Assembly: GCA_023701125.1 (NCBI GenBank)
Contig: JAMPXO010000003.1
Coordinates: 32,391 to 96,390, forward strand
Direction of reading: 5' to 3'
Source of the DNA: Vicinamibacteria bacterium
GTDB taxonomy: Bacteria; Acidobacteriota; Vicinamibacteria; Fen-336
DNA: 64,000 nucleotides
Both the position numbers and the translations under genes were made by a program. Within the stretch, counting starts at the first letter, position 1; each line of letters begins with the position of its first letter. Below the pieces are notes generated by a model, which had not been told where the DNA came from, ran no database searches, and worked only from the letters and a program-made list of their open reading frames with translations. Of the stretch, positions 33,467-56,298 are shown in pieces.

Positions 33467-34135
33467 TCAGGCCGTCTGCAGCGTGAGCAGCGGGTCGAAG
33501 GTCTGCTTCCCGTTCCGCATCCAGATCTCGCGGAACGGCATCGTCGCGACCTCGCCGATCGACAGCGCCCGGTTGAAGGGATGGTCGTGCAGGACCAGCG
33601 CCCCGGTCTCTTCTTCGTGCTCGCTCTGCTCGCCCTGCATCACGATGTTGGCCTGGTAGGCCCCGGAGTCGTCCTTCATGAAGGACTGGTAGAGCTGGTC
33701 CACGGGCTGCCAGGAGTGCTCGCCGATCGACAGGTCCGCGAGCGGCGTGCCGTCGAGGGTGACCTTCGCCGCGAGCGCGCGCTCGGCGCGCACCCACTCG
33801 ATGCCGACGTCCTCCATCCAGTGCGGCAGGTGCCAGCGCTCGATCGCGTGCTCGCGCGCGGCCCGGGTCGTCGTGCCGACCATGTAGGGGTACAGCGCGA
33901 ACTTGGGCAGCCGCTCGCCGGCCTTGACGATCGGCGCGACCATCACCGACATCACGACCTCGCCGTAGGGACCCACCGAGCTCTGGTCGAAATCGAAGCA
34001 GGTCATCGCGAAGATCGACGTGCCGTGGTGCAACTCGGCCAGTTGCAGGTGATCGGGCACGATGCGCCGCGCGTTCTCGGTCGGAAACTCGAAGAAACCG
34101 GCGATGACGTCGGCGTAGCCGTAGACGGTCTTCAA
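33467..34135 (-). CDS. acetoacetate-decarboxylase-fold (ADC-like) protein, function unknown
   Basis: TTG 34135 overlaps the SPT stop (TTGA). ARRIVPDHLQL...FAMTCFDFDQSSVGPYGEVVMSVMV resembles the ADC-family N-terminal beta pattern. The ADC catalytic KK motif is not evident. Confidence 0.45.
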   Translation of the reverse strand: MKTVYGYADVIAGFFEFPTENARRIVPDHLQLAELHHGTSIFAMTCFDFDQSSVGPYGEVVMSVMVAPIVKAGERLPKFALYPYMVGTTTRAAREHAIERWHLPHWMEDVGIEWVRAERALAAKVTLDGTPLADLSIGEHSWQPVDQLYQSFMKDDSGAYQANIVMQGEQSEHEEETGALVLHDHPFNRALSIGEVATMPFREIWMRNGKQTFDPLLTLQTA

Positions 34136-35415
34136 CGGATGATGCCCTCCTCGCGGAGCACGCCCGCGATGACGTGAACGGCCGTCTCGAGATCCTCCTC
34201 GCTGTGCGCCGCCGAGACCGAGACGCGAAGCCGCGACTTGTGCTTCGGCACGGCCGGGTAGGTCACGGGCTGCAGGAACAGGCCACGGTCCTGGACCTTC
34301 TCGGCGACCGCGAACACGCGAGCGTCGTTGTTGACCATCACCGGCATCACCTGCGAGGTCGACTTGCCGATGTCGACGCCTTCCTCCGCGAAGCGGCGGC
34401 GCAGGTAGGCGACGTTCGACCACAGCTTGGTGCGGAGCTGCGGCTCGGACTGGGCGATGCGCAGGCCGGCCAGCAGCCCGGCCGCGACGGGCGGCGCCAG
34501 GTTGCAGGAGAAGAAGCGCGAGCGGCCGAAGGCGTTGACGTAGTCGATCAGGTCGCGGCTGCCGCACACGAAGCCGCCCTGCCCGCCCAGGCTCTTGGAG
34601 AACGTGCCGAGGTGGAAGTCGATCTCGTTGTCGAGCCCGAAGTGCTCCGCCACGCCGCGGCCGTTGGGGCCGAACAGGAACGTGGAGTGCGCCTCGTCGA
34701 TCAGGATGCGAGCGCCGTGGCGCTTGGCCACCTCGACGATCTCGGGCAGCACGCAGACGTCGCCGTCCATCGAGTAGACGCCCTCGACCACGACCAGCTT
34801 CTTGCCCTTGGCCTTCTGCAGCTTGCGCTCGAGGTCGAGCGGGTTGTTGTGGCGGAACCAGAGCGTGTTCGACTTGGCCAGGATCGCGCCGTCGACGATC
34901 GACGCGTGCGAGTACTGGTCGAGGATGATGTAGTCGCCCGAGCGCATCAGCGCGGCGATGAAGCCCACGTTCGCCGAGTAGCCGGTCGGGAACAGGATCG
35001 CGGCTTCCTTGTCCTTGAACTCGGCCATCTCGCGGGCCAGGTCGAGGTGGACCTGCAGGGTCCCGGACAGCATCGGGGAGCCCGAGGCGCCCAGGCCGTA
35101 GAGGTTGGTGGCATCGATCGCCGCCTGCTTGACCTCGGGCCGGTAGGAGATGCCCAGGTAGTTGTAGGAGGCGAGGTTGATCAGGTCCTGGATGCGGCCG
35201 GTCTTGCGGTTGCGGACCCTGACCCGGGACTCCGGGGCGGTCTGCAGCGGCTCGGAGTAGAGGTAGTAGCCGTTCGGCAACGCCTCGCGATACCACTCGT
35301 TGAACGGACCGAGCAGGTTCAGCGGGTCGTCGCCCGCGCCGTAATAGAAATTGCTGTAGTCGTACTCGGCGAACGTCGACGACTTCCCGGGGTCCTTGCC
35401 GTGGACCGGATCCAT
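34132..35415 (-). CDS. spt: alpha-oxoamine synthase, serine-palmitoyltransferase-like
   Basis: ATG 35415 preceded by AAGGAG. LASYNYLGISY (SPT-type SYNYLG), DEAHS, PLP lysine in GTFSKSLGG. 427 aa. Confidence 0.7.
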   Translation of the reverse strand: MDPVHGKDPGKSSTFAEYDYSNFYYGAGDDPLNLLGPFNEWYREALPNGYYLYSEPLQTAPESRVRVRNRKTGRIQDLINLASYNYLGISYRPEVKQAAIDATNLYGLGASGSPMLSGTLQVHLDLAREMAEFKDKEAAILFPTGYSANVGFIAALMRSGDYIILDQYSHASIVDGAILAKSNTLWFRHNNPLDLERKLQKAKGKKLVVVEGVYSMDGDVCVLPEIVEVAKRHGARILIDEAHSTFLFGPNGRGVAEHFGLDNEIDFHLGTFSKSLGGQGGFVCGSRDLIDYVNAFGRSRFFSCNLAPPVAAGLLAGLRIAQSEPQLRTKLWSNVAYLRRRFAEEGVDIGKSTSQVMPVMVNNDARVFAVAEKVQDRGLFLQPVTYPAVPKHKSRLRVSVSAAHSEEDLETAVHVIAGVLREEGIIR

Positions 35416-35462
35416 AGGGCGGTCTCCTTGTGCGCCACGCACCACCGGCACGCGGCAGCGGG

Positions 35463-35471
35463 ATTCTACCA
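35463..35471 (-). promoter_or_regulatory. possible extended -10 (TGGTAGAAT) in front of spt
   Basis: The minus strand reads ...GGCTGGTAGAATCCC... about 47 nt upstream of the spt ATG, inside the 130-nt SDR-spt gap. No good -35 element. Confidence 0.3.
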
Positions 35472-35545
35472 GCCCCGGCCAGCGGCCGGAAGCGCCCACT
35501 GCGGCAAATCGCCGGACGGCTTGGACTTGCGGCGCAGGGAATGCG

Positions 35546-36343: not shown

Positions 36344-36517
36344 GCCGCGTCCCTCTTCGGCGAGCGCCCACCCGGAACCGCGGGTCCGTCGCGCTCGTCG
36401 CGGGGCGACAATAGCAGACGGTCCCGCGGGCTTTAGGCTATGCTCCGCCTTCCGCCGCGGGCCGTCGGCCCGGGTACCAAGGGCGCCCCGAAACCGAAGA
36501 GACCTCGAAGACCCGCA

Positions 36518-37624
36518 ATGGCCAACCTCGCCGCCGCCAACGTGATGCACCGCAAGACCCGGACCCTCGTCTCGGTGCTGGCGGTGGCGATGGAAGTCGC
36601 GATGGTGATGGTGCTGGTCGGGCTGGCCAGCGGCACCCTGGGCGAGATCGCCGACCGCCTCCAGAACGTGGGGGCCGACGTGCTGTTCCAGCCGCCGGAC
36701 GCCTCGCTGCTGCTGGGCGCCACGGCCGCCGTGATGCCGGTGAAGTACATCGACATCATGAAGACCGTCCCGGGCGTGGTCGAGGCCACCCCCGTGCTCA
36801 ACTGGCACGTCTCCAAGGTCAAGGGCGAGACCCGGGCGATCAACCTGTGGGCGATCGACTACCCCTCCTTCACCCGCATCTCGGGCGGCTTCGACCTGCT
36901 CGAGGGCCGCGGCCTTGAGCAGCCCCACGACCTCGTGATCGACACCGTGCTGGCCAACGCCAGCGGCCTGCAGGTCGGCGAGGCGATGCCGATGATGAAC
37001 CGCGAGTTCCGCGTCGCCGGCATCTGCCGCGCGGGCGCGGGCGGCCGGCTGTACGCCCGCATCGAGGACGTGCAGGAGGCGATCGGGGAGCCGGGCAAGG
37101 CCTCGTTCTTCCTGGTCAAGGGCACCGACTCGAAGCAGGCCGACGCGCTGGCGCAGGCGCTCCAGGAGAAGTTCAAGGGCCACAAGATCACGCCCGTCGC
37201 CCAGGTTTCGAGGGCGATGCAGGAGAACGCGATCGGCCTCCAGCAGTTCAAGGAAGCGCTGACCGGGATGGCCGTCATCATCTCGTTCATGGTGGTACTG
37301 CTGGCCATGTACACCACGATCATCGAGCGCACCCGCGAGATCGGCATCCTGCGCGCGATCGGCGCGACCCAGGGCAAGGTCGTGCAGTACGTCGTGGCCG
37401 AGAGTTTCCTGATCTGCCTGGCCGGCGTGCTGCTCGGCAACGCACTGGCGGTCAGTGCGCAGTGGCTGCTACCGAAGATTTTCCCGATGCTGAACATCGC
37501 CTTGAGCCGCGAGTGGGCGCTGATCGCCGCCGCTCTCGGCCTCGTCGGCGGGCTGCTCGGCGCGATCTACCCTGCGATCAAGGCCGCCCGCCTCGACCCC
37601 GTGCAAGCACTCAATTTCGAGTAA
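36518..37624 (+). CDS. orphan FtsX/MacB-type ABC permease (no adjacent ATPase)
   Basis: ATG 36518 in ORF 36440..37624. N-terminal TM, periplasmic domain, and FtsX core ERTREIGILRAIGAT. Confidence 0.8.
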   Translation: MANLAAANVMHRKTRTLVSVLAVAMEVAMVMVLVGLASGTLGEIADRLQNVGADVLFQPPDASLLLGATAAVMPVKYIDIMKTVPGVVEATPVLNWHVSKVKGETRAINLWAIDYPSFTRISGGFDLLEGRGLEQPHDLVIDTVLANASGLQVGEAMPMMNREFRVAGICRAGAGGRLYARIEDVQEAIGEPGKASFFLVKGTDSKQADALAQALQEKFKGHKITPVAQVSRAMQENAIGLQQFKEALTGMAVIISFMVVLLAMYTTIIERTREIGILRAIGATQGKVVQYVVAESFLICLAGVLLGNALAVSAQWLLPKIFPMLNIALSREWALIAAALGLVGGLLGAIYPAIKAARLDPVQALNFE

Positions 37625-37654
37625 CTCCGAAAAGGACTTGGCCCCTTTCAGCTC

Positions 37655-38269
37655 ATGAAACTTCTCAATACCCTGATCGAGAAGGTCTCCGACCACCCGG
37701 TGCTGTTCATCTTCTTCCGGGCGATCCTGGAGAACGATTTCAAGGCGATCCGTGCGGTGATCCGGCGCGAGTTGAACCTCGGCCCCGGCCAGCGGACCCT
37801 GGACCTCGGCTGCGGGCCCGGCGCCTTCTCGGACCTGTTCGAGAAGCACGACTACGTCGGCGCCGACCTCAACAAGCGCTACATCGACTACGCCCGCGAG
37901 CACCGCCGCGGCACGTTCATCGCCTCTGACGCGCGCAAGGTGGACCTGCCGGACGCCCGCTTCGACCAGGTGCTGATCTTCGGCCTGCTCCACCACCTCT
38001 CGGACGAGGACACGCGGGCCGTGTTGTCGGAGGCGCGGCGCATGGTCGTCCCCGGCGGCGTGATCCTGGCGATCGAGGACATCCCGGCCCAGCATCGGCT
38101 CAACCTGATCGGCCACCTGCTGCACGCGATCGAGAACGGCGAGCACATCCGCCCGACCGCGGACTACAAGGGGCTGTACGCCGAGGCCGGCACGATCGAA
38201 CTCGAAGAAGAACTGCGCAGTGGCGTCTGCGACTACTACGTCGCGCGGATTCGCACGCCCAGGGTGTGA
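37655..38269 (+). CDS. class I SAM-dependent methyltransferase
   Basis: SAM motif I LDLGCGPGAF and post-I DLNKRYIDYA. 204 aa. Its stop overlaps the next start (GTGA). Confidence 0.8.
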   Translation: MKLLNTLIEKVSDHPVLFIFFRAILENDFKAIRAVIRRELNLGPGQRTLDLGCGPGAFSDLFEKHDYVGADLNKRYIDYAREHRRGTFIASDARKVDLPDARFDQVLIFGLLHHLSDEDTRAVLSEARRMVVPGGVILAIEDIPAQHRLNLIGHLLHAIENGEHIRPTADYKGLYAEAGTIELEEELRSGVCDYYVARIRTPRV

Positions 38270-40266
38270 GCGGCCGGCGCCTCGCCGGCACGCTGGCCTG
38301 GGCGCTCGCCGCCGCCGTGCTGGCGGTCGCCGGCCTCGCTGCGGGGTTGCGGCAGGCGCGCCCGCTGGTGCTCGACCTGGGGCCCAACGACGCGGCGCAA
38401 CTTGCCGGCTTCCGCGAGGACTGGGAGCGCGAGGGATCGGTCGCGTTCCGCTGGACGACGCTGCGCTCGGAGGTGCGCTTCCCCTTCGCGCTCGCCGAGC
38501 CCGGGGGCCGCGTCGTACTCCGCTATCGGCGCCACTTCGACGACCCCGCTCGGGTGCGCATCGTCTCCGCGGGCGCCACGGTCGTTCAGTTCGAGGCCAG
38601 GGCCGATCGCAAGAGCCCCTACCTCGAGCTCGAGGCTCCGCTCGGCGCGACGCGCGGGCCGCTCACGCTGGTGTTCGAGTCCCACGTCACCAACGAGCGC
38701 CCGCTGGGCATCGCTCTCGACTGGGTGCGGGTCGAAGGCCGAGGCGGCTACCAGACGACGGGAAGCCTGTCCGTCGCGGTCGCCCTGCTGGCGGCAGGCA
38801 CCGTGTTGCTCGTCGCGGCCGCCGGGGCTCCGGCCCTCCCGGCCGCGGCGGCCGGATTGCTGGTTGCGGCGGCGATCGGACTGGGCGGCTGGTGGGACCC
38901 GATGGCACTGGACCGGATCGTCCAGGGCGGCCTGGCGCCGTGGCTGCTCACGGGTGCGGCTGCGGTCCTGCTGCTCCGGGCGCGGCCGTCCTCGGCCTGG
39001 CTGCGTGTCGAAGTCGCGCACCGGCCCGCGCTGCTCGCGCTGGCCCTCGTGGCGCTGGCTGTGCGGCTCGTGCTGGTGCTCCACCCCCGCTTCTACTACC
39101 CGGACGTGCGCACCCATGCGCTCTTCGCGGGACAACTCGCCCGCCACGGGCTCGAGCGCTTCTTGCAGGGCTTCACCGAGAACCAGTTCCGCTACTCGCT
39201 GGGCATCCAGCTCGAGGGCGATCACTGGTACGCGTTCCCCTACCCGCCGCTGTTCTACGTCTTCGCCCAGCCCCTGATCGGATTGTTCCGCCTCGCGCCC
39301 GAGCTCGCCGTCTCGGCGCTGCCGGCGATGGTCAACGCGCTCGAGGTGCTGCTCGTCTACGCGCTCGCCCGTCGCCTGGCGGCCGTCGCGCCGCTGCGCG
39401 CCGCGGCGCTCGTGGTGGTGCTACCGATCTTCCTGGCCCGGGCGTCGCTGGCGCTCTTCCCCGCCCTGGTCGGCCATGCCCTCGATACGTTGCTGCTGGT
39501 CTGCCTGCTCGACCTGTTCCAGGCCGCGCGCCCTCGCGTCCGCAGCGGGGTCGTGTCGGGCCTGCTGCTGGCGACGGCCTTGCTGGCGTACACACAGGGC
39601 GTCCTGAACTTCGGCCTGCTGCTGCCGCTGGTGCTGGCCTGGGATTTTTTCGCGGACCGCACGCCGACGGGCCGCGATCGGCAACGGGCTCTGCTGACCG
39701 CGGGCGTCCTCGGTGTGACGCTGGCAGCCGGGCTCTTCTACGCGCGCTACGTGCCGGTGTTCGTGGACATGCAGCGGGGCATCCCCCAGCCCGAGGAGCG
39801 CATCTGGCTGGAGTTGCAGGAGCGGCGGGCGCTGCAGGGGGACGACGATCAGCCCGAGGAGCCCAACGACCCCTACGCCGCCCCGACGTTCGAGGCCACC
39901 CGGGGGCTGGCCAAGGCGGGCTCGCGCTTGTGGATTTTCTGGGGCCCGTTCGCGCTCCTGCTACCGGTCGGGGTGGGACTACTGGCCGCGGGCGAAGCCG
40001 CGGCCAGCCGGCGCTTCCTGATCGCGTGGGCCAGCCTCTACATCGTGCTGAACTTCGCATCCGGCAGCCTGCCCGGCCCGAACCTCTTCCGCCACAGCAA
40101 GGACGTCGAGGTCGTCGCGCCGCTCTGCGCGCTCTCTCTCTCTCTCGCCGGCTCCGGGCCCCGCTCGCGCCTGGCGTGGCGCGCGGTATGGATGGCCTTC
40201 GTCGTCTACGCAGCCTGGCGAGTCGTCGAGATCTACGGGCGCATCACACCCGCTCCGTTGCCCTAG
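38266..40266 (+). CDS. large polytopic membrane protein, GT-C/PMT_2-like, with N-terminal extracytoplasmic domain
   Basis: 666 aa. An N-terminal TM is followed by a ~150-aa soluble domain and then more than 10 hydrophobic segments. HPRFYYPDVRTHA loop motif. Confidence 0.55.
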   Translation: MSGRRLAGTLAWALAAAVLAVAGLAAGLRQARPLVLDLGPNDAAQLAGFREDWEREGSVAFRWTTLRSEVRFPFALAEPGGRVVLRYRRHFDDPARVRIVSAGATVVQFEARADRKSPYLELEAPLGATRGPLTLVFESHVTNERPLGIALDWVRVEGRGGYQTTGSLSVAVALLAAGTVLLVAAAGAPALPAAAAGLLVAAAIGLGGWWDPMALDRIVQGGLAPWLLTGAAAVLLLRARPSSAWLRVEVAHRPALLALALVALAVRLVLVLHPRFYYPDVRTHALFAGQLARHGLERFLQGFTENQFRYSLGIQLEGDHWYAFPYPPLFYVFAQPLIGLFRLAPELAVSALPAMVNALEVLLVYALARRLAAVAPLRAAALVVVLPIFLARASLALFPALVGHALDTLLLVCLLDLFQAARPRVRSGVVSGLLLATALLAYTQGVLNFGLLLPLVLAWDFFADRTPTGRDRQRALLTAGVLGVTLAAGLFYARYVPVFVDMQRGIPQPEERIWLELQERRALQGDDDQPEEPNDPYAAPTFEATRGLAKAGSRLWIFWGPFALLLPVGVGLLAAGEAAASRRFLIAWASLYIVLNFASGSLPGPNLFRHSKDVEVVAPLCALSLSLAGSGPRSRLAWRAVWMAFVVYAAWRVVEIYGRITPAPLP

Positions 40267-45795: not shown

Positions 45796-46530
45796 GTGAT
45801 CACCCTGCTTTTTTCCACGCTGTTGGCCCAGGCGGGCGGGACCGCATTTTCCGGAGGCGTGTTCGGACTGATCCGCGACAGCGGCCCGGTCGCGATCGCC
45901 GTCCTGTTCACGCTCCTCGTGTTCTCCTTCGTCTCGTGGGCGATCATCGTCTACAAGGGCCTCGCGTTGCGTCAAGCGTACCAGCACTCCGAGACGTTCC
46001 TGGAGATCTTCCGGAAGAGCTCCAAGTTCTCCGAGGTGCACTCCGTCTGCGTCCAGCTCAAGGCGAGCCCGCTGGTCGGTGTCTTCCAGGCCGGCTACCA
46101 GGAGGTCAACCAGCAGGTGCGCGCCGGCCAGCAACCGGCCGCAGCCGCTGCCGCGCGCCCGGTCGTGAAGAGCCTGGAGTCCCTCACCCGTGCGCTGGTC
46201 CGCGCCGCCACCGCCGAGTCCACCCGCCTCGAGCGACGGCTGAGTTTCCTCGCGACCACTGCCGCCGTGTGTCCGTTCGTCGGCCTTTTCGGCACCACGT
46301 GGGGCATCATGAACGCCTTCCAGGAGATCGGCTCGCAGGGATCGGCCAACCTGGCCGTCGTCGCGCCGGGCATCTCCGAGGCGCTGATCACGACGGCGAC
46401 CGGCCTGGCCGCGGCGATCCCCGCGGCCGTCTTCTACAACTACTTCGCCAGCCGCGTGCGGGTGCTGACCGCGATGGTCGACGACTTCGCGCTCGAGTTC
46501 CTCAACATCGTCGAGCGGAACTTCACTTAA
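45796..46530 (+). CDS. tolQ: MotA/TolQ/ExbB proton-channel protein
   Basis: Three TM segments and the C-terminal GLFGTTWGIMNAF...EALITTATGL motif. First gene of the tol-pal cluster. Confidence 0.85.
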   Translation: MITLLFSTLLAQAGGTAFSGGVFGLIRDSGPVAIAVLFTLLVFSFVSWAIIVYKGLALRQAYQHSETFLEIFRKSSKFSEVHSVCVQLKASPLVGVFQAGYQEVNQQVRAGQQPAAAAAARPVVKSLESLTRALVRAATAESTRLERRLSFLATTAAVCPFVGLFGTTWGIMNAFQEIGSQGSANLAVVAPGISEALITTATGLAAAIPAAVFYNYFASRVRVLTAMVDDFALEFLNIVERNFT

Positions 46531-46531
46531 G

Positions 46532-47002
46532 GTGGCGATCGGGACGGGCGGCGGAGGCGGCGGACGCGCGAGCGCGCTGTACTCCGGGTTCCGCTCCAAG
46601 CGCGGCCTGCAGCAGATGGGCGAGATCAACATCACACCGCTGGTCGACGTGGTGCTGGTGCTGCTGCTCGTCTTCATGGTGACAGCGCCGATGATGAGCC
46701 GCGGCATCGACGTGTCGCTGCCGGTGGCGGGCCTCAAGGACCCGCAACCCGAGGACCGGCTGACGGTCTCGGTCAATGCCGAGGGCCGCGTCTACCTCGG
46801 CGACCGGCCGATCGCTCTCGAACTGCTCGAGGACGAGTTGCGGGGCCGCCTGCAGGGCGTCGGCCAGCGCATTGCCTACCTGCGGGCCGACGAGCGCATC
46901 GCCTACGGCCGGGTGATCGCGGTCGTCGACCGAATGAAGAGGGCAGGCGTCGAAAACATCGGGTTCGTCTACGAGCTTCCCGAGGAGAAGGCCGCGCGTT
47001 GA
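46532..47002 (+). CDS. tolR: TolR/ExbD biopolymer transport protein
   Basis: EINITPLVDVVLVLLLVFMV motif. The start is uncertain: GTG 46532 or ATG 46616. Confidence 0.8.
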   Translation: MAIGTGGGGGGRASALYSGFRSKRGLQQMGEINITPLVDVVLVLLLVFMVTAPMMSRGIDVSLPVAGLKDPQPEDRLTVSVNAEGRVYLGDRPIALELLEDELRGRLQGVGQRIAYLRADERIAYGRVIAVVDRMKRAGVENIGFVYELPEEKAAR

Positions 47003-47805
47003 AGGATGCCGTCGATAGCGTGATCGCCGAGCGCGAACGGCTCGACCGGGGCTTCCCGGCCGGGCTCGTGATGTCGCTGGCCGGTCACCTGCTGATCGCG
47101 GGGGCCGCGTTCGCGCTGCCGATCCTGATGCCGGCCAAGCCGAAGCTGCAGGTCTCGATCGGCATCGCCATCCCGATCCCGCGTGGGGGCGGCGGCAGCC
47201 CGACGGCCGGCTCGCCCGACGGCGGCGCCGCACAGCAGCCCCCGGTCACCCAGGCCCCGGAGCCGGAACCGCCCAAGCCCGAGCCTGTCAAGGTCGTGAA
47301 GCCCCCGAAGGAAGCCGAGCGCAAGGGCCTGCCCGACCCGAAGGCGGACAAGAAGAAGGCGAAGGCGAAGAAGCCCGAGCCCGCGCGGCCGTCCAGCACC
47401 ACGTCCGCGAAGTCCACCGCGAGCAAGAAACCGGCCGGCACCGGGGCGCAGAGCACGACCGCCTCCAGCGCGACCCCGGGGGTGGGACTCGGTCCGGTCG
47501 GACCCGGGCTGCCTGGCGGCACGACCTCGACCGGCGACTGGTACCTTGCGGCCGTCCAGCAGAAGATCTGGATGATCTGGAATCAGCAGCTCCGGACCGG
47601 CACGTATCCGCCGGTGACTGTTCGCTTCACCATCCTCGGCGACGGCCAGGTCACCGACGTCGCCATCGTCCAGTCGAGCGGGCAATACCTGCTCGACCAG
47701 GCGGCCCAGCGGGCCGTGCTCACCGCCGGGCCATTCTCGCCGCTGCCCAGGAGCTATGACACCAAGGCCTTCACACTCCAGGCCGTCTTCCAGCCGGTCG
47801 GTTAG
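46999..47805 (+). CDS. tolA: TolA-position energy transducer with TonB-type C-terminal domain
   Basis: The TTG start overlaps the tolR stop (TTGA). N-terminal TM, a Pro/Lys/Ala-rich linker, and a TonB_C-like C-terminus (VTVRFTILGDGQVTDVAIVQSSG). Confidence 0.7.
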   Translation: MKDAVDSVIAERERLDRGFPAGLVMSLAGHLLIAGAAFALPILMPAKPKLQVSIGIAIPIPRGGGGSPTAGSPDGGAAQQPPVTQAPEPEPPKPEPVKVVKPPKEAERKGLPDPKADKKKAKAKKPEPARPSSTTSAKSTASKKPAGTGAQSTTASSATPGVGLGPVGPGLPGGTTSTGDWYLAAVQQKIWMIWNQQLRTGTYPPVTVRFTILGDGQVTDVAIVQSSGQYLLDQAAQRAVLTAGPFSPLPRSYDTKAFTLQAVFQPVG

Positions 47806-49141
47806 CCTCGGCGCCGCCGTCGCGGCGCTGGTGCTCGTACTGACGGGCCGAGAGGCGACGCCTGTCCTTGCGGCGCCCCAGGCCCCGCCTCCCGACACCC
47901 AGATCGTGATCACGAGCGGGACCCAGGGTCCGCGGCTGGCGATCGCCGACTGCGCGCCGCGGCGCGAGGACCCCGCCCTGCGCGCGGCGTGCGGCACCAT
48001 CTCCCAGGTGCTCCGCGCCGACCTGCGCTTCGAGGGACTGTTCCAGTTCGTGCCCGACAGCCTGCTGCGCGCGATCCCGCCGCTCAACCCCGAGTCCCCC
48101 AACATGGAGGACTGGAAGTCGATCGGCGCCGGGGTGCTGGTCGTGACCCGCGTCGACGGCACCGCAGCCGAGCTCGGCGTCGACCTGCGCGTCTACTTCG
48201 TGGAGAACGGCCAGGTGATGCTGGCCAAGCGCTACGCCGGCCCGGCCAGGAACCCGCGCGTGTTCGCCCACCAGGCCTCGGACGACATCGTGCTGCTGAC
48301 CCAGAACCGGGGGGTCGCCCGCACCAAGATCGCCTTTTCCTCCGACCGCGACGCGACCAAGGAGCGCCGCGCGAAGGAGATCTACATCATGGATTACGAC
48401 GGGTTCAACCCGCGCCGGGTCACGGTCAACAACTCGCTGAACATCCTGCCGAACTGGACGCCGGACGCCACCGGGCTCGCCTACGTCTCCTACCGCCAGG
48501 GCCGGCCGCTGGTCTTCCTGTCGCGGATCTACGCGGGGACCAACACCCCGAACCTGACCGGCGAGAAAGAGTCGAGCCAGGCCTTCGCCCCGTCCTTCAG
48601 CCCGGACGGATCGCGCATCGCCTGGGCCAGCAACCGCAGCGGCAACATGGAGGTGTGGGTTGCCAACGCCGACGGCTCCGGGGCCCACGCGGTGACCCAG
48701 AGCGCGGCCTCGGACACGGCCCCGACCTGGAGCCCCACCGGCCGCGAGATCGCCTTCACCTCGAACCGCGGCGGCACGCCCCAGATCTACGTGATGGACG
48801 CCGAGGGCCTGAACGTGCGCCGGCTCTCGACGGTCGGCAATTACAACGACGCCCCGTCGTGGAACCCGAACAAGCAGTTCCTCGAGGTCGCCTACACCTC
48901 TCGGCTGGAGGGCCAGTTCCAGATCGCGATCGTCGACATCGCCAGCGGCCAGGTCCGTCAGATCACCGAGAACCGCGGCTCGTGCGAGTACCCGACCTGG
49001 GCGCCCTCGGGTCGGCACCTCGCGTTCTCGTGCCAGCGCGGCGCGACGTGGCAGATCCACGTCGCGGACCGCGAGGGGCGCATCGTGCAACCGCTCCAGG
49101 CCGGGCCGGGCAGCAACGTCCAGCCCGACTGGAGCAATTGA
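47756..49141 (+). CDS. tolB: Tol-Pal system beta-propeller protein TolB
   Basis: TolB N-domain plus repeated ...P.WSPDG..IAF.S.R.G...I... blades. The ATG 47756 start overlaps tolA by 50 nt. Confidence 0.85.
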   Translation: MTPRPSHSRPSSSRSVSLGAAVAALVLVLTGREATPVLAAPQAPPPDTQIVITSGTQGPRLAIADCAPRREDPALRAACGTISQVLRADLRFEGLFQFVPDSLLRAIPPLNPESPNMEDWKSIGAGVLVVTRVDGTAAELGVDLRVYFVENGQVMLAKRYAGPARNPRVFAHQASDDIVLLTQNRGVARTKIAFSSDRDATKERRAKEIYIMDYDGFNPRRVTVNNSLNILPNWTPDATGLAYVSYRQGRPLVFLSRIYAGTNTPNLTGEKESSQAFAPSFSPDGSRIAWASNRSGNMEVWVANADGSGAHAVTQSAASDTAPTWSPTGREIAFTSNRGGTPQIYVMDAEGLNVRRLSTVGNYNDAPSWNPNKQFLEVAYTSRLEGQFQIAIVDIASGQVRQITENRGSCEYPTWAPSGRHLAFSCQRGATWQIHVADREGRIVQPLQAGPGSNVQPDWSN

Positions 49142-49155
49142 GGAGCGAACCCGAG

Positions 49156-49731
49156 ATGCACGCCCGACGTCTGAACCTGCTCGCGGCCGTGGTGCTGGCC
49201 GTCTTCGCCCTGGCCTGCGGCGGCGGCAAGCGCCCGTCCGCGCTCACCCAGCCCCCGCCCCCGCCCCCGCCCGGCACCGGCTCCACGTACGGCGGCCCGC
49301 GGCCGCAGCCCGTCGATGCCGGTCCCGACGTGGTGCCGCTCGACGGCGAGGGCGTGGCCGCTTCCGATTTCGAGGAGTCGCGCGCCGACGGCGAAGGCGG
49401 GCCGCTGGCCGACGTGCTGTTCGGCTACGACCAGGCCAACCTGTCGGACGAGGGCCGCGCGCTCGTGGAGCGTCACGCGGTCTGGCTCCAGGCCCGTCGC
49501 GAGGCCAAGATCATCATCGAGGGCCACTGCGACGAGCGCGGCACCGTGGAGTACAACCTCGCCCTCGGCGAGTTGCGGGCCAGGGCCGTCCGCGACCTGC
49601 TGGTCAGCCTCGGCGTCGACGGGGCGCGGCTGAACGTCGTCTCCTACGGCAAGGAGCGGCCCCTCGACGGCGGCTCGGGCGAGGCGTCCTGGGCCCGGAA
49701 CCGGCGCGCGCACTTCGTCGTCCGCCGCTGA
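49156..49731 (+). CDS. pal: peptidoglycan-associated lipoprotein (OmpA-family)
   Basis: GAGGAG Shine-Dalgarno upstream. Lipobox VFALAC|G. OmpA_C motifs GHCDERGTVEYNLALGELRA and NRR. Confidence 0.9.
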   Translation: MHARRLNLLAAVVLAVFALACGGGKRPSALTQPPPPPPPGTGSTYGGPRPQPVDAGPDVVPLDGEGVAASDFEESRADGEGGPLADVLFGYDQANLSDEGRALVERHAVWLQARREAKIIIEGHCDERGTVEYNLALGELRARAVRDLLVSLGVDGARLNVVSYGKERPLDGGSGEASWARNRRAHFVVRR

Positions 49732-49834
49732 CGGTCACCACGACTTTCGCGCCGGGCGCGGTCCTCCCGCGGTCTGGCGATTGTCTACCATGCGCCGCAT
49801 GACGGTTGCGGCGCGCTCGATCGAGGAGGTCCCC

Positions 49835-50632
49835 GTGATCCGCCGCACTCTCGCGTTCGCCCTGCTCGTCGCCCTCGTGGCCGTGCCCGCGCGAGCGGAC
49901 GACAAGCAGGAGATCCAGCGCCTCCAGGTCCAGGTGGCGACGCTGCAGGTCCAGGTCTCAGACCTGCTTCGCCTGGGCCAGGACAACCAGCGCGAGATCA
50001 AGCGCCTCAACGAAGCTCTCGCGGAACAGACGCAGCTCGTCCGCAAGCTCGTGCAGGACCAGCGCCTGCAGCTCGAGTCGTTGCAGACCGCGATGCGCGA
50101 GAACGGTGAGCGCCTCGCCGAGATGGGCGAACGCCTCCAGGGCCTGCAGGGTTCGGCCCTGCCCCCGGCCGGCTATGCCCCGGCGCCGACGGCTGCGCCG
50201 GGTGCGGCAACCGACCCCGCGGCTCCCGGCGCCACGCCGCCCGCGGGCGCCGCGGCCCCGCCCCCGCGCGAGCTCTACACCCAGGCCTACGCCGACTTCG
50301 CGCGCGGCAACTACGATCTCGCCATCCAGGGCTTCCAGGAGTACCTGCGCAACTACTCCGGCACCGACTTCGCCGACAACGCGCAGTACTGGATCGGCGA
50401 GTGCCTCTACGGGAAGCTCAAGTACGAGGAGGCGATCGAGGCGTGGAACGGGCTGCTGCGCGACTACGCCGCCAGCGACAAGCTGCCCGACGCGCGGGTC
50501 AAGAAGGGCATGGCGCTCGAGAAGCTCGGCCGCCGCTCCCAGGCCCAGCTCGAGTACCGCTTCGTCGTCGAGCGCTTCCCCAACACCCAGGCCGCGCGCA
50601 TCGCGCGCGAGAAGCTCAACCCCCAGCAGTAA
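49835..50632 (+). CDS. cpoB: Tol-Pal system protein CpoB/YbgF (coiled coil + TPR)
   Basis: GTG 49835 lies 5 nt after GAGGAGG. Signal peptide, coiled coil, and the TPR block YTQAYADFARGNYDLAIQGFQEYL. Confidence 0.85.
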   Translation: MIRRTLAFALLVALVAVPARADDKQEIQRLQVQVATLQVQVSDLLRLGQDNQREIKRLNEALAEQTQLVRKLVQDQRLQLESLQTAMRENGERLAEMGERLQGLQGSALPPAGYAPAPTAAPGAATDPAAPGATPPAGAAAPPPRELYTQAYADFARGNYDLAIQGFQEYLRNYSGTDFADNAQYWIGECLYGKLKYEEAIEAWNGLLRDYAASDKLPDARVKKGMALEKLGRRSQAQLEYRFVVERFPNTQAARIAREKLNPQQ

Positions 50633-50653
50633 GGCTTTCGCGAAGGAGATCGC

Positions 50654-51097
50654 ATGGCCAGCGTCAACAAGGTGATCCTGATCGGCAACCTCGGGCGAGA
50701 CCCCGAGATCCGGTACACGCAGGGCGGCGAGCCGATCGCCAACTTCTCGGTCGCCACCAGCGAGCGCTGGACCGACAAGTCCGGCCAGAAGCAGGAGCGC
50801 ACGGCCTGGCACCGGGTCGAGGTGTTCGGCAAGACCGCGCAGATCGCCAAGGACTACCTGTCCAAGGGCCGCCCGGTCTACCTCGAGGGCAGCATCTACT
50901 ACGACGAGTGGACCGACAAGGACGGCAACAAGCGCAACAGCACCAAGATCCGGATCTCGGGCCCCAACTCGAAGCTGGTTCTGCTCGGCTCGCGCGGGGA
51001 AGGCGGCGCAGGCGGTGGCGGCTCGCGTGGCGGCTCGCCCGACGAGGGCCCGGCCGGGGAGGACTTCGTTCCCGGCGACGAGGACGTCCCGTTCTAG
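50654..51097 (+). CDS. ssb: single-stranded DNA-binding protein
   Basis: AAGGAG Shine-Dalgarno upstream. MASVNKVILIGNLGRDPEIRYT OB fold, a Gly-rich linker, and the acidic tip DEDVPF. Confidence 0.95.
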   Translation: MASVNKVILIGNLGRDPEIRYTQGGEPIANFSVATSERWTDKSGQKQERTAWHRVEVFGKTAQIAKDYLSKGRPVYLEGSIYYDEWTDKDGNKRNSTKIRISGPNSKLVLLGSRGEGGAGGGGSRGGSPDEGPAGEDFVPGDEDVPF

Positions 51098-51114: not shown

Positions 51115-52191
51115 GTGACAGCGGTCGCCGGCCTCCTGCCGATCGCTCGCTGGGCGACGCCGTACGTCTGCTCCCAGGCCCAAGTGGCCGAGCGCGTGCG
51201 CGCTTGGCTCGGCGAACCGGGTACCCCGCCCTCGCTGCAGCGGTTGATGGCGGTGTACGCGGTGGCCGGCGTCGAGGCGCGCTCGTCGGCGCTGCCGATC
51301 GACGAGATCTTCGCGGGCAGCGACTTCGAGTCCCGGAACGACCGCTACGCTGCGGTGATGATCGAGGCCGCCACCGCCGCCTCCCGCGAAGCGCTGGCGC
51401 TCGCCGGCGTGGATGGGACGTCGATCGGCCTCGTCACCAGCGTCTCGTGCACGGGCTTCATGATCCCGGCCGTCGATGCTCACGTCGCCAACGCGCTCCG
51501 GCTCGGGCCGCGCCTGGCCCGGCTGCCGATCACGCAGAGCGGCTGCGCGGGTGGCGCCGTCGGCCTCGCGCGCACCGTCGACTTCCTGGCGGCGCATCCC
51601 GCGCAGGCGGCACTGCTGATCGCGGCGGAGTTCCCGTCGCTGACGTTCCAGCGCTGGGATCGGTCGGCCACCAACGTGATCTCCACCGCGCTGTTCGGCG
51701 ACGGGGCCGCCGCGTGCGTGCTGGTCGGCCGCGACCACCCCCGCTTCGCCTCGGCACCGGTGCACTGGGAGCACGCGGCCAGCCGCTTCTTCGCGGACTC
51801 GCTGCCGATGATGGGCTTCCGGCTCCGCAATCCCGGCCTGCAGATCATCCTCGACAAGGGCCTGGCCCCGTTCGTGCGCCGCCACGCGGGCGAGGCGCTG
51901 GCCACATTTCTCGATGAAGCGCAGGTCTCCCGCGACGAGCTGACGCGCTTCGCGCTCCACCCCGGGGGGCGCAAGGTGATCGAGGGCCTCGCCTCCGCCT
52001 GGGGCCTCACCGCAGCGGACCTCGAGGCCACCCGCCGAGTGCTGCGCGAGCGCGGCAACATGAGCTCGGTGACCGTTCTCCACGTGCTCGCCGAGGTGCT
52101 CGCGGAGCGGCCTGCGGCAGGCGAGCGCGGCCTGCTGGTCGCGTTCGGGCCGGGTTTCGGAGCCGAACTGGCGCTACTGCGCTTCACGTGA
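51115..52191 (+). CDS. type III polyketide synthase (chalcone/stilbene-synthase family)
   Basis: GTG 51115 in ORF 50401..52191. Catalytic Cys in VSCTGFMIPA, His in ALHPGGRKV, Asn in RGNMSSVTV. Confidence 0.85.
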   Translation: MTAVAGLLPIARWATPYVCSQAQVAERVRAWLGEPGTPPSLQRLMAVYAVAGVEARSSALPIDEIFAGSDFESRNDRYAAVMIEAATAASREALALAGVDGTSIGLVTSVSCTGFMIPAVDAHVANALRLGPRLARLPITQSGCAGGAVGLARTVDFLAAHPAQAALLIAAEFPSLTFQRWDRSATNVISTALFGDGAAACVLVGRDHPRFASAPVHWEHAASRFFADSLPMMGFRLRNPGLQIILDKGLAPFVRRHAGEALATFLDEAQVSRDELTRFALHPGGRKVIEGLASAWGLTAADLEATRRVLRERGNMSSVTVLHVLAEVLAERPAAGERGLLVAFGPGFGAELALLRFT

Positions 52192-52889
52192 GCCGGCTGC
52201 CCGACCTCCGCGAGCGGTCGCGCGAGCCGGAGTTGCTGGACCTCGGCGGGGTGCCCGACCACGAAGTCGCGGCCTCGCTCGCCGACATCCGCTTCGTGAA
52301 CACCTGGCTCGGCGGCCACCGGACGTTCGCGATGGTGCTGCGGCCCTTCCTCGCCGAGGCCCGAAAACGCGGCGGGCCGCTGACGCTGCTCGACGTCGGC
52401 TGCGGTTCGGCCGACCTGCCCTCCCACCTGCAGGCGCGCGAGCCGAGGCTGGTCCGCGCGTTCGGCGTCGACCTCAAGCCCGGGCACCTGCGCCAGGCCC
52501 CCGCCTCGATTCACCGCGTGGCCGGCGACGTGTTCGCGCCTCCTTTTGCGGAGCGCTCCTTCGACGTCGTGGCCTGCTCGTTGTTTCTCCATCACCTCGA
52601 CGGCGACGACGTTCCACGGGTGCTCTCGTCCCTCTGGCGCCTGGCCCGCCGGGCGCTGGTCGTCAACGACCTGCGCCGTGCCCAGGTCCCGCACGCGTTC
52701 GCGCGGCTGGTCTTCCCCCACCTCTTCCGCTCCCCGGTCAGCGTGCATGACGGCCTGGTGTCGATCCGCCGCTCCTTCACGCCCGGCGAGTTGCGCGAGG
52801 CCTTCGCCGCCGCGGGCTTGCCCGCCCCGACCGTGACCCGCGTCTTCCCCTACCGCCTCGCCGCCGTCGTGCGACGCGAGTCGCCGTGA
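52188..52889 (+). CDS. class I SAM-dependent methyltransferase (SrsB-like by context)
   Basis: Start overlaps the PKS stop (GTGA). Motif [12 protein letters not shown]. 233 aa. Confidence 0.8.
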
Positions 52890-54094
52890 GCCAGGCGGAG
52901 CGCGAGGTCGTGATCGTGGGTGGCGGCCCGGCCGGTGCCGCCGCGGCGCTGTTCCTGCGGCAGCAGGGCGTCGACGTGCTGCTGCTCGAAGCCGCCCGTT
53001 TTCCCCGCGACAAGATCTGCGGCGAGGGCGTGTCGCCCGAGGCCTGGCGGCTGTTGCGAGCGATGGGGGCCGCAGAGGACGTCGCCCGACTCGCGCCGCG
53101 GCCGCTGCGCGGCATGCGCGTGATCGCGCCCGACGGAACGGTCTTCGAGGGCGTCTACCGGCGCGGCGGCGAGACGCTGACCGGGTTCGCGGTGCGCCGG
53201 ACGCGCCTCGACGCCACCCTGCTCGACGCCGCCCGCCGCGCGGGAGCGGAAGTCCGCGAGGGCGCCCGGGTTGCCGAGGCCGTTCGGTCCGCTGGCGGCG
53301 TCACCGGCGTCCGGATGCAGGACGGCGAATCGATCCGGGCCCGCTTCGTGCTCGGCTGCGACGGCCGCTGGGGGGCCTGCGCGCGGGCCGTGGGCGGCCT
53401 GCGCGGATCCCGCTTCTTCCGGCGCTTCGCGTTGCGCCTTCACCTCGAAGGCGTGGCGGGCCTTGGCTCCGTCGGCGAAATGCACGTGGGCCGCGGCGGG
53501 TACTGCGGCATCGCCCCGCTCTCGGACACGTCGGCCAACGTGGCCTTCGTGCTGGACGCTTCCGCCTTCGCCGCCGCGGCCGGCCGGCTCGAGGACTTCG
53601 CCCGCGAGACGCTCGCGCAGCGCTTCCCCGCGGTCGCGGCCCGCTGTCGCGACGCCAAGTGGCTGGGACCGCCGCGCGCCATCGGGCCGCTCGCGGTCTC
53701 GGTCCCCCGCCGCGCCCTGCCCGGCCTCCTGCTCCTGGGGGACGCCGCAGGCTTCTACGATCCCTTCACCGGCGAAGGCGTGACCCTCGCCCTGCGCAGC
53801 GCCGAACTCGCCGTCGGGCCCGTGGTCGACGCCCTGCACGGCCGCGTGTCGTCTGCGGCTGCCGCCGCGCGCTACGAGCGCGAGTATGCTGGCGCCACTC
53901 GCGACAAGTTCCGCCTCAACCGCCTGCTGCAGTGGGTCGTGGCCTGGCCGGCGGTCGCCAACGCGGTCGCCCGCCGCTTGCGCGCGCGCCCGCGCACGTG
54001 CGACGAACTGGTCGGCATCGCCGGCGATTTCGTGCCGGCGCGGCGCGCCCTGGGCCCCCGCTTCCTGCTCCAGTTGCTCCAGCCCGGCGCCTGA
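52886..54094 (+). CDS. FAD-dependent oxidoreductase, geranylgeranyl-reductase/aromatic-hydroxylase family (SrsC-like by context)
   Basis: Start overlaps the methyltransferase stop (GTGA). [17 protein letters not shown] dinucleotide fold, [25 protein letters not shown]. Confidence 0.8.
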
Positions 54095-54183
54095 CGGCGG
54101 GCCCGAAACCGGGGGGCGGCTCCGCGGGGGGTGCAGTAGAATTCCTTTTTCTCGGCAGCCTGCCGTTCCCGGAGGTAATTCGC

Positions 54184-56298
54184 GTGGCCACGACCGCCCT
54201 CAGCCAGGAGACCGGACTCGACCGCCAGACTCTGGTGGGGATCTACCGGACGATGTACCAGTCGCGCCGGGTCGACGACAAGGAGATCCAGCTCAAGCGC
54301 CAGAACAAGATCTTCTTCCAGATCAGCGGCGCGGGCCACGAAGCGGTGCTGGCGGCGGCGGGCCTCGTGCTCAAGCCCAACCACGACTGGTTCTACGCGT
54401 ACTACCGCGACCGCGCGCTGATGCTGGCGCTGGGCATGACGCCGCTGGAGATGCTGCTCTCCGCGACCGGCGCCGCGGACGACCCGAACTCCGGCGGCCG
54501 CCAGATGCCCTCGCACTGGGGTCACGCGGGCCTCAACATCGTCACCAAGTCTTCGCCCACCGGCACCCAGTTCCTGCAGGCGGTCGGCTGCGCGGAGGCC
54601 GGCATCTACGCTGCCGCCCAGGAGGGAGCCGGCACGAAGCTCGGGCTGCCCTTCCGCTCGGACGAAATCGTGTACGTCTCGACCGGCGACGGCACGACGT
54701 CCGAGGGCGAGTTCTGGGAGAGCCTCAACACCGCCTGCAATCGCAAGCTGCCCGTCCTCTACCTGGTCGAAGACAACGGCTACGCGATCTCGGTCCCGGT
54801 CGAGGTCCAGACGGCCGGTGGCAGCATCTCGAAGCTGGTCTCTTCCTTCCCCAACCTGCTGGTGCGCGAGGTGGACGGTTGCGACCCGCTGGCGAGCCTC
54901 GGCACCCTGCGCGAGGCGGCGACCTGGTGTCGCGAGCGACGCGGGCCTGCGCTCGTCCACGCCAAGGTGATCCGGCCGTACTCGCACTCGTTGTCCGATG
55001 ACGAGGCCCTGTACCGCCCCGGCCACGAGCGCGAGGCCGACGCGGCGCGCGACCCGCTGGTCTCCTGGCCGGCCTTCCTGCTACGCGAGGGACACGCGAC
55101 CGAGGCCGAACTGGAGGCGCTGCGCGCCGAGGTCGACCGCGAGGTGGCCGAGGCCGGCGATCTCGCCTGTGCCGCGCCCCAGCCCGAGCCGGCTTCAGCC
55201 CTGCTCCACGTCTACTCGCCCGAGGTCGACCCGACCTCGAAGGCGTTCGACACCGAGCCGGCCTTCGCGGGCGATCCCAAGACCGTCGTCGACCTGCTCA
55301 ACGCCTGCCTGCACGAGGAGATGGCTCGCGACCCGCGGGTCGTCGTCTTCGGCCAGGACGTCGCCGACTGCAGCCGCGAGGACAACCTGCCCCACGTCAA
55401 GGGCAAGGGCGGCGTGTTCAAGGTCACCCACAACCTGCAGCGGCGCTTCGGCGGTGAGCGCGTGTTCAACTCGCCGCTGGCCGAGGCCAACATCGTCGGC
55501 CGCGCGATCGGCATGGCCACCCGCGGGCTGAAGCCGGTGGTCGAGATCCAGTTCTTCGACTACATCTGGCCCGCGTACATGCAGATGCGCAACGAGCTGG
55601 CGCTGATCCGCTGGCGCTCGAACGGGGCGTTCAAGTGTCCCGCCGTCGTGCGCGTGACCTACGGCGGCTACCTCCAGGGCGGCGCCGTCTATCACTCCCA
55701 GTGCGGTGAGGTGCTGTTCACCCACATCCCCGGCCTGCGGGTCGTGCTGCCGTCGAACGCCGAGGATGCGAACGGCTTGCTGCGCACCGCGATCCGCTGC
55801 GACGACCCCGTGCTCTTCCTCGAGCACAAGCACCTGTACCGTCAGACCTACAACAAGGGCCGCAACCCCGGCCCCGACTACTGCATCCCGTTCGCCAAGG
55901 CGCGCACGGCGCGGCCCGGCAAGGACCTGACGATCGTCACCTTCGGCGCGCTCGTGCAGCGCAGCCTGGTGGCCGCCAAGCAGGTGGCCGAGAGCGACGG
56001 CATCGAGGCCGAGGTGATCGACCTGCGCACGCTGTCGCCCTACGACTGGGACGCGATCGCGGAGAGCGTGAAGCGCACTGGCAAGGTGATCGTGGCCCAG
56101 GAGGACCAGATCTCCTGGGGCTACACCGCGGAGATCGCGGCCCGCATCTCGGACGAGCTGTTCGAGTGGCTGGACGCCCCGGTCAAGCGCATCGGCGCCA
56201 CCGACACCTTCGTCGGCTACGCGCCGTCGCTCGAGGACTTCATCCTGCCCCAGATCCCGGGCATCGCCGCGGAGATCCGCAAGCTCGCCCGCTATTAG
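54184..56298 (+). CDS. 2-oxoacid dehydrogenase E1 component, fused alpha+beta subunits (TPP-dependent)
   Basis: GTG 54184 lies 8 nt after GGAGG. TPP motif [15 protein letters not shown]. The beta-like half carries [13 protein letters not shown]. 704 aa. Confidence 0.85.

Follow-up and report, generated by a model that had tools for sequence, protein, structure and literature searches.

The 64-kb stretch of the genome of a Vicinamibacteria bacterium studied here (contig JAMPXO010000003.1; hereafter "the window", with positions counted from its first nucleotide) contains, at positions 51115–54094 of the plus strand, a tightly coupled three-gene operon that probably directs the synthesis of a tailored phenolic lipid, likely a methylated hydroquinone or quinone lipid derived from an alkylresorcinol. 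The first gene (51115–52191, 358 amino acids, GTG start) encodes a type III polyketide synthase (PKS). It is followed by a gene for a class I S-adenosylmethionine (SAM)-dependent methyltransferase of the PRK06202/HidA-type family (52188–52889, 233 amino acids) and a gene for a flavin adenine dinucleotide (FAD)-dependent oxidoreductase of the geranylgeranyl-reductase/halogenase-like group (52886–54094, 402 amino acids; below, the flavoprotein). The GTG start codon of the methyltransferase gene overlaps the TGA stop codon of the PKS gene in the sequence GTGA at positions 52188–52191, and the flavoprotein start codon overlaps the methyltransferase stop codon in the same way at positions 52886–52889.

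The original prediction, made from the DNA letters alone, had called three co-directional open reading frames (ORFs) with these overlaps, and the calls hold. The third-position GC content is 0.91–0.93 in the three gene frames and 0.58–0.86 in overlapping alternative and antisense ORFs (the GC content of the window is ca. 72%). Since it is above that of every competing ORF, the gene frames of region 51115–54094 are the coding frames. The same genes were called on a 4.7-kb contig from a public sequencing run that is identical to the locus. All three products match Pfam families above curated cut-offs: Chal_sti_synt_N and Chal_sti_synt_C for the PKS (PF00195, 51.1 bits, and PF02797, 60.1 bits; cut-off 27), Methyltransf_11/25/23/12 for the methyltransferase and FAD_binding_3 for the flavoprotein. 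In 25 complete related loci, the median junction length is −4 at both the PKS/methyltransferase and the methyltransferase/flavoprotein boundaries. Because the same median recurs in 25 relatives, the tight junctions are not due to chance; the three genes are apparently translationally coupled.

As judged by sequence similarity, the operon is a mosaic, which combines a PKS from a clade nearer to SrsA and Pks11, a methyltransferase of the hid type, and a flavoprotein from a subfamily common to srs- and hid-type clusters. SrsA/B/C and HidA/B/C were not compared directly but were represented by stand-ins: an operon from a Streptomyces plasmid (strain NBC_00184; type III PKS, ICMT protein (PF04140) and FAD-dependent monooxygenase), annotated plasmid cassettes and genes of G. 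maris. The latter are codon-optimised sequences from the supplement of PMC10896814 that were damaged by optical character recognition (OCR), and identities calculated with them are lower bounds. Plain tblastn searches with these sequences returned fragments only; the G. maris values given below come from frameshift-tolerant alignments.

The catalytic triad of the PKS consists of C144 in the motif TQSGCAGG (51544–51546), H282 in HPGG (51958–51960) and N315 in GNMSS (52057–52059), all of which are invariant in 13 homologues. The histidine and the asparagine had been correctly named in the original prediction, but the catalytic cysteine had been placed in the SCTGF motif. As can be seen from alignments with Pks11, THNS and other enzymes, C112 of this motif (51448–51450, plus strand) occupies a non-catalytic position lining the cavity, which is a cysteine in THNS too. 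C144 aligned with Cys138 of Pks11, the residue that is a serine in the mutant chain of structure 4jat.

Pks11 of M. tuberculosis is the best relative of the PKS among solved structures (E-value 7e-56, 34% identity). Profile scores of solved structures were 257 bits for Pks11, 210 for CylI and 204 for THNS. An AlphaFold2 model (pLDDT 82) was most similar in Foldseek searches to Pks11 (TM-score 0.87), with CylI next and THNS at rank 17. Thus, by profile and by fold rank the enzyme is not closest to the RppA/THNS type, as the assignment to phenolic lipids had presumed. Among annotated comparators, the Streptomyces SrsA-type PKS scored 196 bits (37% identity) and the HidC-type PKS of Paludisphaera borealis 128 bits; identity to all compared enzymes was 30–37%. 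These scores place the clade of the PKS nearer to SrsA and Pks11 than to HidC. Homologues with 57–60% identity carry the JGI label "alkylresorcinol/alkylpyrone synthase".

The motifs SVSCTGFMIP, TExGCA[AG]G and MG[FY] are characteristic of this clade and were seen in Acidobacteriota, Bacteroidota, Bdellovibrionota and Nitrospinota; by these motifs, the PKS belongs to a separate clade without a characterised member. Genes of the same clade are present in Saprospiraceae (locus L058, 3460–11474), Bdellovibrionales (L066, 3382–8532) and Nitrospinota (L081, 6004–9533), where their neighbours encode YceI-like lipid-binding proteins, a FabA-like dehydratase, KAS and MMPL-family exporters. Since PKS genes of the clade adjoin such genes, a lipid product, possibly an exported one, is suggested. 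Cassettes of sphingomonads, in which the PKS has the GFMGC motif and thus belongs to the other type, contain acyl carrier protein (ACP) and KAS genes, which makes fatty-acyl starters plausible for that type as well. Planctomycete HidC-type and Pks11-type PKSs both yield C15–C17 alkylresorcinols from cellular acyl-coenzyme A (CoA) thioesters (PMC10896814).

The methyltransferase contains SAM motif I (LLDVGCGS, 52386–52409) and belongs to the class I families PF08241/PF13649. A BLASTP comparison with the ICMT gene product of the Streptomyces PKS-ICMT-FAD operon revealed no similarity (E-value 9.2); the literature assigns SrsB/BpsB-type enzymes to the membrane-bound ICMT family (PMC6669644, PMC9827899). 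A tblastn search of plasmids with the methyltransferase retrieved ten records, and in each of the six that were inspected the homologue was part of a cassette with a type III PKS and an FAD enzyme. The gene order is methyltransferase-FAD-PKS in Paludisphaera borealis and PKS-methyltransferase-FAD in Deinococcus radiodurans, Paracoccus and Sphingobium, while Novosphingobium and Psychrobacter contain the same three genes in other arrangements. A type III PKS from a Rhizobium plasmid, considered as another instance of the cassette, was rejected, having neither a methyltransferase nor an FAD partner.

Full-length identity of the methyltransferase to the PKS-adjacent methyltransferases of Paludisphaera, Deinococcus, Novosphingobium and Psychrobacter is 27–37%, and to that of Saprospiraceae, 24%. 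Alignment with G. maris Mtr gave 35% identity over 225 columns (score 165 versus 35 ± 5 for shuffled sequences). Across the cassette methyltransferases, which come from five phyla, 18 positions are invariant, including those in the signatures PExxD, LDxGxG, LHH, ND..R and DG..S. The top NCBIfam model for the window enzyme is NF004851 (PRK06202, titled "hypothetical protein"), with 130 bits against an equivalog cut-off of 243. The same model was the sole or the top one for all type III PKS-associated class I methyltransferases tested, and the enzyme of the D. radiodurans cassette (L088, 3986–4696) exceeded the cut-off with 334 bits. Co-expressed in vivo with its PKS, G. maris Mtr adds methyl groups to C15/C17 alkylresorcinols (PMC10896814), and HidA methylates 5-pentadecylresorcinol (PMC6836626). 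Because the window methyltransferase is homologous to Mtr and to the cassette enzymes and lacks similarity to ICMT, it is of the hid type rather than the srs type.

The flavoprotein contains the motif GGGPAG (52919–52936), a 10-residue motif (53000–53029), the motif GGYCGIAPL (53495–53521) and a 14-residue motif (53738–53779), all on the plus strand. It is 30% identical to the product of the third gene of the Streptomyces PKS-ICMT-FAD operon (281 amino acids, E-value 2e-14), with which it shares the motifs DKxCGEG and GDAAGxxDxxTGEG, 33% identical to its P. borealis (E-value 5e-25) and Bdellovibrionales counterparts and 28% identical to G. maris Fdo. The best NCBIfam match is TIGR02032 (GG-red-SF; 142.9 bits, cut-off 158.8), followed by QhpG (126.7 bits) and then MenJ; the LodB and GoxB models score as well. 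The same pattern, with GG-red-SF just under the cut-off and then QhpG and MenJ, was obtained with window, srs-type and hid-type flavoproteins. An AlphaFold2 model (pLDDT 87.7) matched, in order, FasV, ChlB4, Bmp2, PltA, CndH, then 3nix and the geranylgeranyl reductase 3oz2 in Foldseek searches, with TM-scores of 0.8–0.84 to the closest solved folds. The halogenases FasV, CndH, PltA and Bmp2 and the reductase 3oz2 share with the flavoprotein the motifs GxGxxG and GDAAxxxDP, and the Cys of CGEG is shared with the reductase. Unlike the halogenases, the flavoprotein has no WxWxIP motif, the invariant GGYCGIAPL being present instead, and has Leu74 where FasV and CndH have their catalytic Lys; with the geranylgeranyl reductase model, it falls below the cut-off. 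On these sequence comparisons, the flavoprotein is a geranylgeranyl reductase/halogenase-like protein of a subfamily common to srs-type and hid-type clusters.

A pathway that would account for these three activities can be outlined as follows. The PKS would load a fatty acyl thioester (of CoA or ACP) and extend it by three malonyl units on Cys144, and the resulting tetraketide would cyclise to a 5-alkylresorcinol or an alkylresorcylic acid, aldol condensation being the most likely route. The methyltransferase would then methylate the ring, either on oxygen (the HidA reaction) or on carbon (the G. maris Mtr reaction). Like SrsC, and as proposed for HidB, the flavoprotein may hydroxylate the ring with O2 and electrons from a reduced nicotinamide or flavin, to give a methoxy-alkyl-hydroquinone. 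The latter could oxidise to an alkylbenzoquinone, a hierridin-like phenol being an alternative end product. The product would presumably reside in the membrane as a lipid, an antioxidant or a quinone. The chemistry of the srs/pkq and hid clusters, on which this scheme is modelled, is described in PMC9927152, PMC5916927 and PMC6836626.

Several observations weigh against this scheme. The srs and hid comparisons were made with stand-ins taken from annotations or publications, and in one case the DNA was OCR-damaged. The PKS has, by sequence, only 34–37% identity to the closest compared enzymes, none of its clade has been linked to a product, and the deep branches of a neighbour-joining tree are without support; in its SCTGF and GCA[AG]G motifs and in the aromatic residue at the position of THNS Tyr224, the PKS is as similar to THNS as to Pks11. 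By sequence, geranylgeranyl reductases are the best-scoring matches of the flavoprotein, and its homologues are automatically named geranylgeranyl reductase or MenJ. Co-expression of G. maris Fdo led to no detectable change (PMC10896814), and the HidB step is described as hydroxylation in one report (PMC6836626) and as reduction in another (PMC8086630).

The last two groups of observations raise the question of whether the flavoprotein acts as a geranylgeranyl reductase/MenJ-like reductase and saturates a double bond of the side chain or of a prenyl group added elsewhere. We consider this rather unlikely. TIGR02032 is indeed the top model, the motif RxKxCGEG with its conserved Cys is common to geranylgeranyl reductases while halogenases are without that Cys, JGI names the homologues geranylgeranyl reductase family or menaquinone-9 beta-reductase, and PMC8086630 ascribes a "reduction" to HidB. 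However, the flavoprotein is homologous to the product of the srs-type third gene, which according to PMC9927152 and PMC6669644 carries out a hydroxylation on the way to a benzoquinone, and models of the aromatic-ring monooxygenases QhpG, LodB and GoxB also score on it. In addition, formation of hierridin B needs a ring hydroxylation for which HidB is the sole candidate (PMC6836626), and there is no prenyltransferase beside the window operon.

The type of ring closure is the next point at issue. If the PKS lactonised its tetraketide, the product would be a long-chain alkylpyrone, O-methylated by the methyltransferase, and the flavoprotein would not form a quinone. Precedents for pyrones are Pks11, which is deposited as a PKS of alpha-pyrone synthesis and makes pyrones in vitro, BpsA and DquA. 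At the position of ArsB Trp281 (discussed in PMC5916927, PMC9927152 and PMC9827899), which corresponds to THNS Tyr224 and CHS Gly256, the window PKS has a Phe rather than a Trp (F235; 51817–51819, plus strand), and this Phe is invariant in the Vicinamibacteria clade. Pks11 has a Trp here, CylI a Leu and THNS a Tyr. DquA, which has a Trp at this position, makes only pyrones (PMC9827899), while CylI, a proven resorcinol synthase and the second-best match of the window PKS, manages with a Leu. We therefore rejected this position as a predictor of ring type; Phe235 cannot decide between aldol and lactone closure. The methyltransferase and the flavoprotein belong to families known from clusters that tailor resorcinols (hid, planctomycete and srs/pkq), whereas pyrone-making bps/dqu clusters contain an ICMT and no flavoprotein (PMC9827899). 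An alkylpyrone product is, in our view, unlikely.

Still less probable is an RppA/THNS-like or phloroglucinol-type PKS that uses a malonyl-CoA starter, in which case the product would be a small methylated and hydroxylated aromatic pigment or quinone. Apart from the motifs shared with THNS, a neighbour-joining tree of the window PKS with Pks11, CylI, THNS, EsPKS1 and the PKSs of the loci placed THNS nearer than Pks11, but without support (bootstrap values of deep nodes 1–23), and PltM, an enzyme with phloroglucinol as a substrate, is among the structural neighbours of the flavoprotein. Against this, THNS lies below Pks11 and CylI in profile score and in fold rank, neither the operon nor the flanking ORFs include a P450 or a cupin of the kind that accompanies rppA, the methyltransferase family is tied to proven alkylresorcinol clusters (PMC10896814), and relatives of the PKS adjoin the KAS, ACP, FabA-like, YceI and MMPL lipid genes described above. 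Finally, that the flavoprotein is a flavin-dependent halogenase of the phenolic ring, as would be needed for hierridin C, for which no halogenase is known (PMC6836626), is hardly credible and was rejected on motifs, since, although its top ten Foldseek matches and top sequence matches among solved structures are phenol and pyrrole halogenases (FasV, ChlB4, Bmp2, PltA, CndH, CmlS), it lacks WxWxIP and the catalytic Lys, and the FPRxxIGES motif is replaced by FPRDKxCGEG, as in geranylgeranyl reductases.

A methylated, alkylresorcinol-derived hydroquinone or quinone lipid is the most likely product. The same three enzyme classes are encoded by hidABC, the hierridin cluster of Cyanobium sp. LEGE 06113, and by the planctomycete mtr-fdo-t3pks clusters (PMC6836626, PMC8086630, PMC10896814). 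The methyltransferase is a true homologue, with 35–37% identity to G. maris and P. borealis Mtr and shared REPELxD, LHH, NDLxR and DGxxS motifs, and the flavoprotein is a homologue at 28–33%. The hidC>hidA>hidB order found in cyanobacteria (PMC8086630) is the order of the window genes, which also coincides with that of the Deinococcus, Paracoccus and Sphingobium cassettes. The difference lies in the PKS, which has TQSGCAGG, MGF and Phe235, while the HidC/ArsB-like enzymes have GFMGC...[ST]W and a Trp at the ArsB-281 position. The operon therefore belongs, through its methyltransferase and flavoprotein, to the broad group of hid-like cassettes but, because its PKS clade differs, is not a typical hid cluster.

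The original prediction had matched the operon to srsABC of Streptomyces griseus. The PKS-methyltransferase-flavoprotein order, which srsABC and pkqABC of Mycobacterium smegmatis share with the window, and the SrsC-type flavoprotein bear this out, but an SrsB-type methyltransferase is absent. Among annotated comparators, the PKS is closest to this type (37% identity to the Streptomyces operon PKS, 34% to Pks11), and by analogy the expected chemistry would be alike, with methylation followed by ring hydroxylation and quinone formation; srsABC and pkqABC convert alkylresorcinols to methoxy-alkylbenzoquinones (polyketide quinones). In contrast, the window operon encodes a soluble methyltransferase of the class I Rossmann type while theirs is a membrane enzyme of the ICMT family (PF04140), the actinomycete PKSs have the motifs VTGVAxP, GLGCVAGAAG and MGW, and the window flavoprotein is longer (402 versus 337 amino acids), with an extra C-terminal helical region. 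Since its methyltransferase is not of the ICMT type, the operon is not an srsABC orthologue. On the plasmid of Streptomyces sp. NBC_00184 (L082, 3977–9158), the srs-type operon is flanked by genes for a UbiA prenyltransferase and two methyltransferases and resembles clusters for prenylated alkylresorcinols and quinones (agq).

The bpsAB and dquAB systems are also built around type III PKSs for long-chain phenolic lipids (alkylpyrones, alkylresorcinols), but they have no flavoprotein and their methyltransferase is not homologous to that of the window. A relation to the ars cluster of Azotobacter, which had been proposed as well, could be retained at the superfamily level only: Azotobacter vinelandii arsABCD, like the pathway proposed here, employs type III PKS chemistry for membrane phenolic lipids. 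The ars system needs two type III PKSs and the type I fatty acid synthase-like ArsA and ArsD, and includes neither a methyltransferase nor a flavoprotein. The window operon with its flanking ORFs has one type III PKS, with no second PKS and no type I synthase, and the longest ORF in a scan of the whole window encodes 879 amino acids.

To follow the operon beyond the window, 80 loci were fetched, of which about 45, all from Vicinamibacteria, contain a PKS that is 54–75% identical to that of the window. The closest genomes are metagenome-assembled ones of this class. The order ssb-PKS-methyltransferase-flavoprotein is kept in all of these loci where the contig is long enough (more than 40), a few error-prone long-read assemblies giving partial or no matches to the methyltransferase and the flavoprotein. 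The expectation that these two genes would be co-conserved with the PKS was thus borne out within the clade. PKS genes at about 40% identity (Terriglobia, Versatilivoraceae and others) are without methyltransferase and flavoprotein partners. Apparently, the locus is fixed in position and vertically inherited in this abundant uncultured soil class. Two-gene sets of a type III PKS and an ICMT (bpsAB type) were observed in other Acidobacteriota (L075, 5896–7499) and on Stenotrophomonas and Sphingomonas plasmids (L085, L086); given the pair in L075, both cassette types occur within Acidobacteriota. A literature search retrieved no paper on this cluster in Vicinamibacteria, nor on a specific type III PKS product of Vicinamibacteria or Acidobacteria.

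Directly upstream of the PKS gene, the window contains tolQ-tolR-tolA-like-tolB-pal-cpoB (the last encoding a YbgF-like TPR protein) followed by ssb, together spanning positions 45796–51097. The ssb gene (50654–51097, plus strand; Pfam SSB on the Logan contig) lies outside the pathway, and its stop codon is 17 nucleotides from the PKS start. Because of this spacing and the conserved ssb-PKS adjacency, the PKS operon may be read through from ssb, and the two are probably in the same transcription unit. No promoters and no terminator-like sites were found between positions 49000 and 54600, but shuffled DNA of 72% GC also yields about zero promoters, so the scan is uninformative. Downstream, 80 nucleotides after the flavoprotein gene, starts a plus-strand gene for a fused E1 alpha/beta 2-oxoacid dehydrogenase component (54175–56298, 707 amino acids; Pfam E1_dh, Transket_pyr and Transketolase_C), which follows the flavoprotein gene in roughly half of the related loci as well. 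If specific for branched-chain substrates, this E1 component could be a source of branched acyl primers.

Farther away, an operon-like group on the plus strand (36440–40266) encodes an FtsX/MacB-type permease, a second, unrelated class I methyltransferase (204 amino acids) and a 666-amino-acid protein without a Pfam match. On the minus strand, domain hits identified a CDP-alcohol phosphatidyltransferase (30030–30773), a DAGK/YegS-type lipid kinase (32545–33438) and a class I/II aminotransferase of 454 amino acids, a candidate serine-palmitoyltransferase/KBL-like enzyme (34132–35499). These minus-strand genes are probably the lipid operon that the original prediction had mentioned at a distance of 15 kb and had counted as a second non-canonical membrane-lipid pathway of the window. 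Searches of the whole 64-kb window revealed no tRNA genes and no Rfam families at gathering score.

The cassette itself is already known in cyanobacteria, planctomycetes and actinomycetes, and the general picture of the pathway is unchanged. Within the literature searched, Acidobacteriota is a new host phylum for a hid-like cassette. Type III PKS cassettes exchange methyltransferase families, ICMT or PRK06202 class I, around a common flavoprotein, and because of such swaps, "srs-like" calls based on gene order alone mislabel clusters. The NF004851/PRK06202 family is a type III PKS-associated methyltransferase family and could receive a functional name.

A bolder idea, which we regard as doubtful, is that the product is a polyketide quinone serving as an auxiliary respiratory electron carrier or a membrane redox buffer, encoded by a vertically inherited, near-core operon of Vicinamibacteria. 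Mycobacterial and Streptomyces polyketide quinones (PkQ) do serve in respiration (PMC9927152, PMC5916927). If the idea were true, polyketide quinones would be widespread as a bioenergetic cofactor among soil Acidobacteriota, which are abundant and for the most part uncultured, and the synthesis of this quinone would depend on another, soluble type of methyltransferase and on a PKS of an uncharacterised clade. Little has been learnt so far about the lipids and quinones of Vicinamibacteria, an abundant soil class with few cultured members; being fixed in position and tightly coupled, the operon described here could give rise to alkylresorcinol-type lipids or polyketide quinones in soil.

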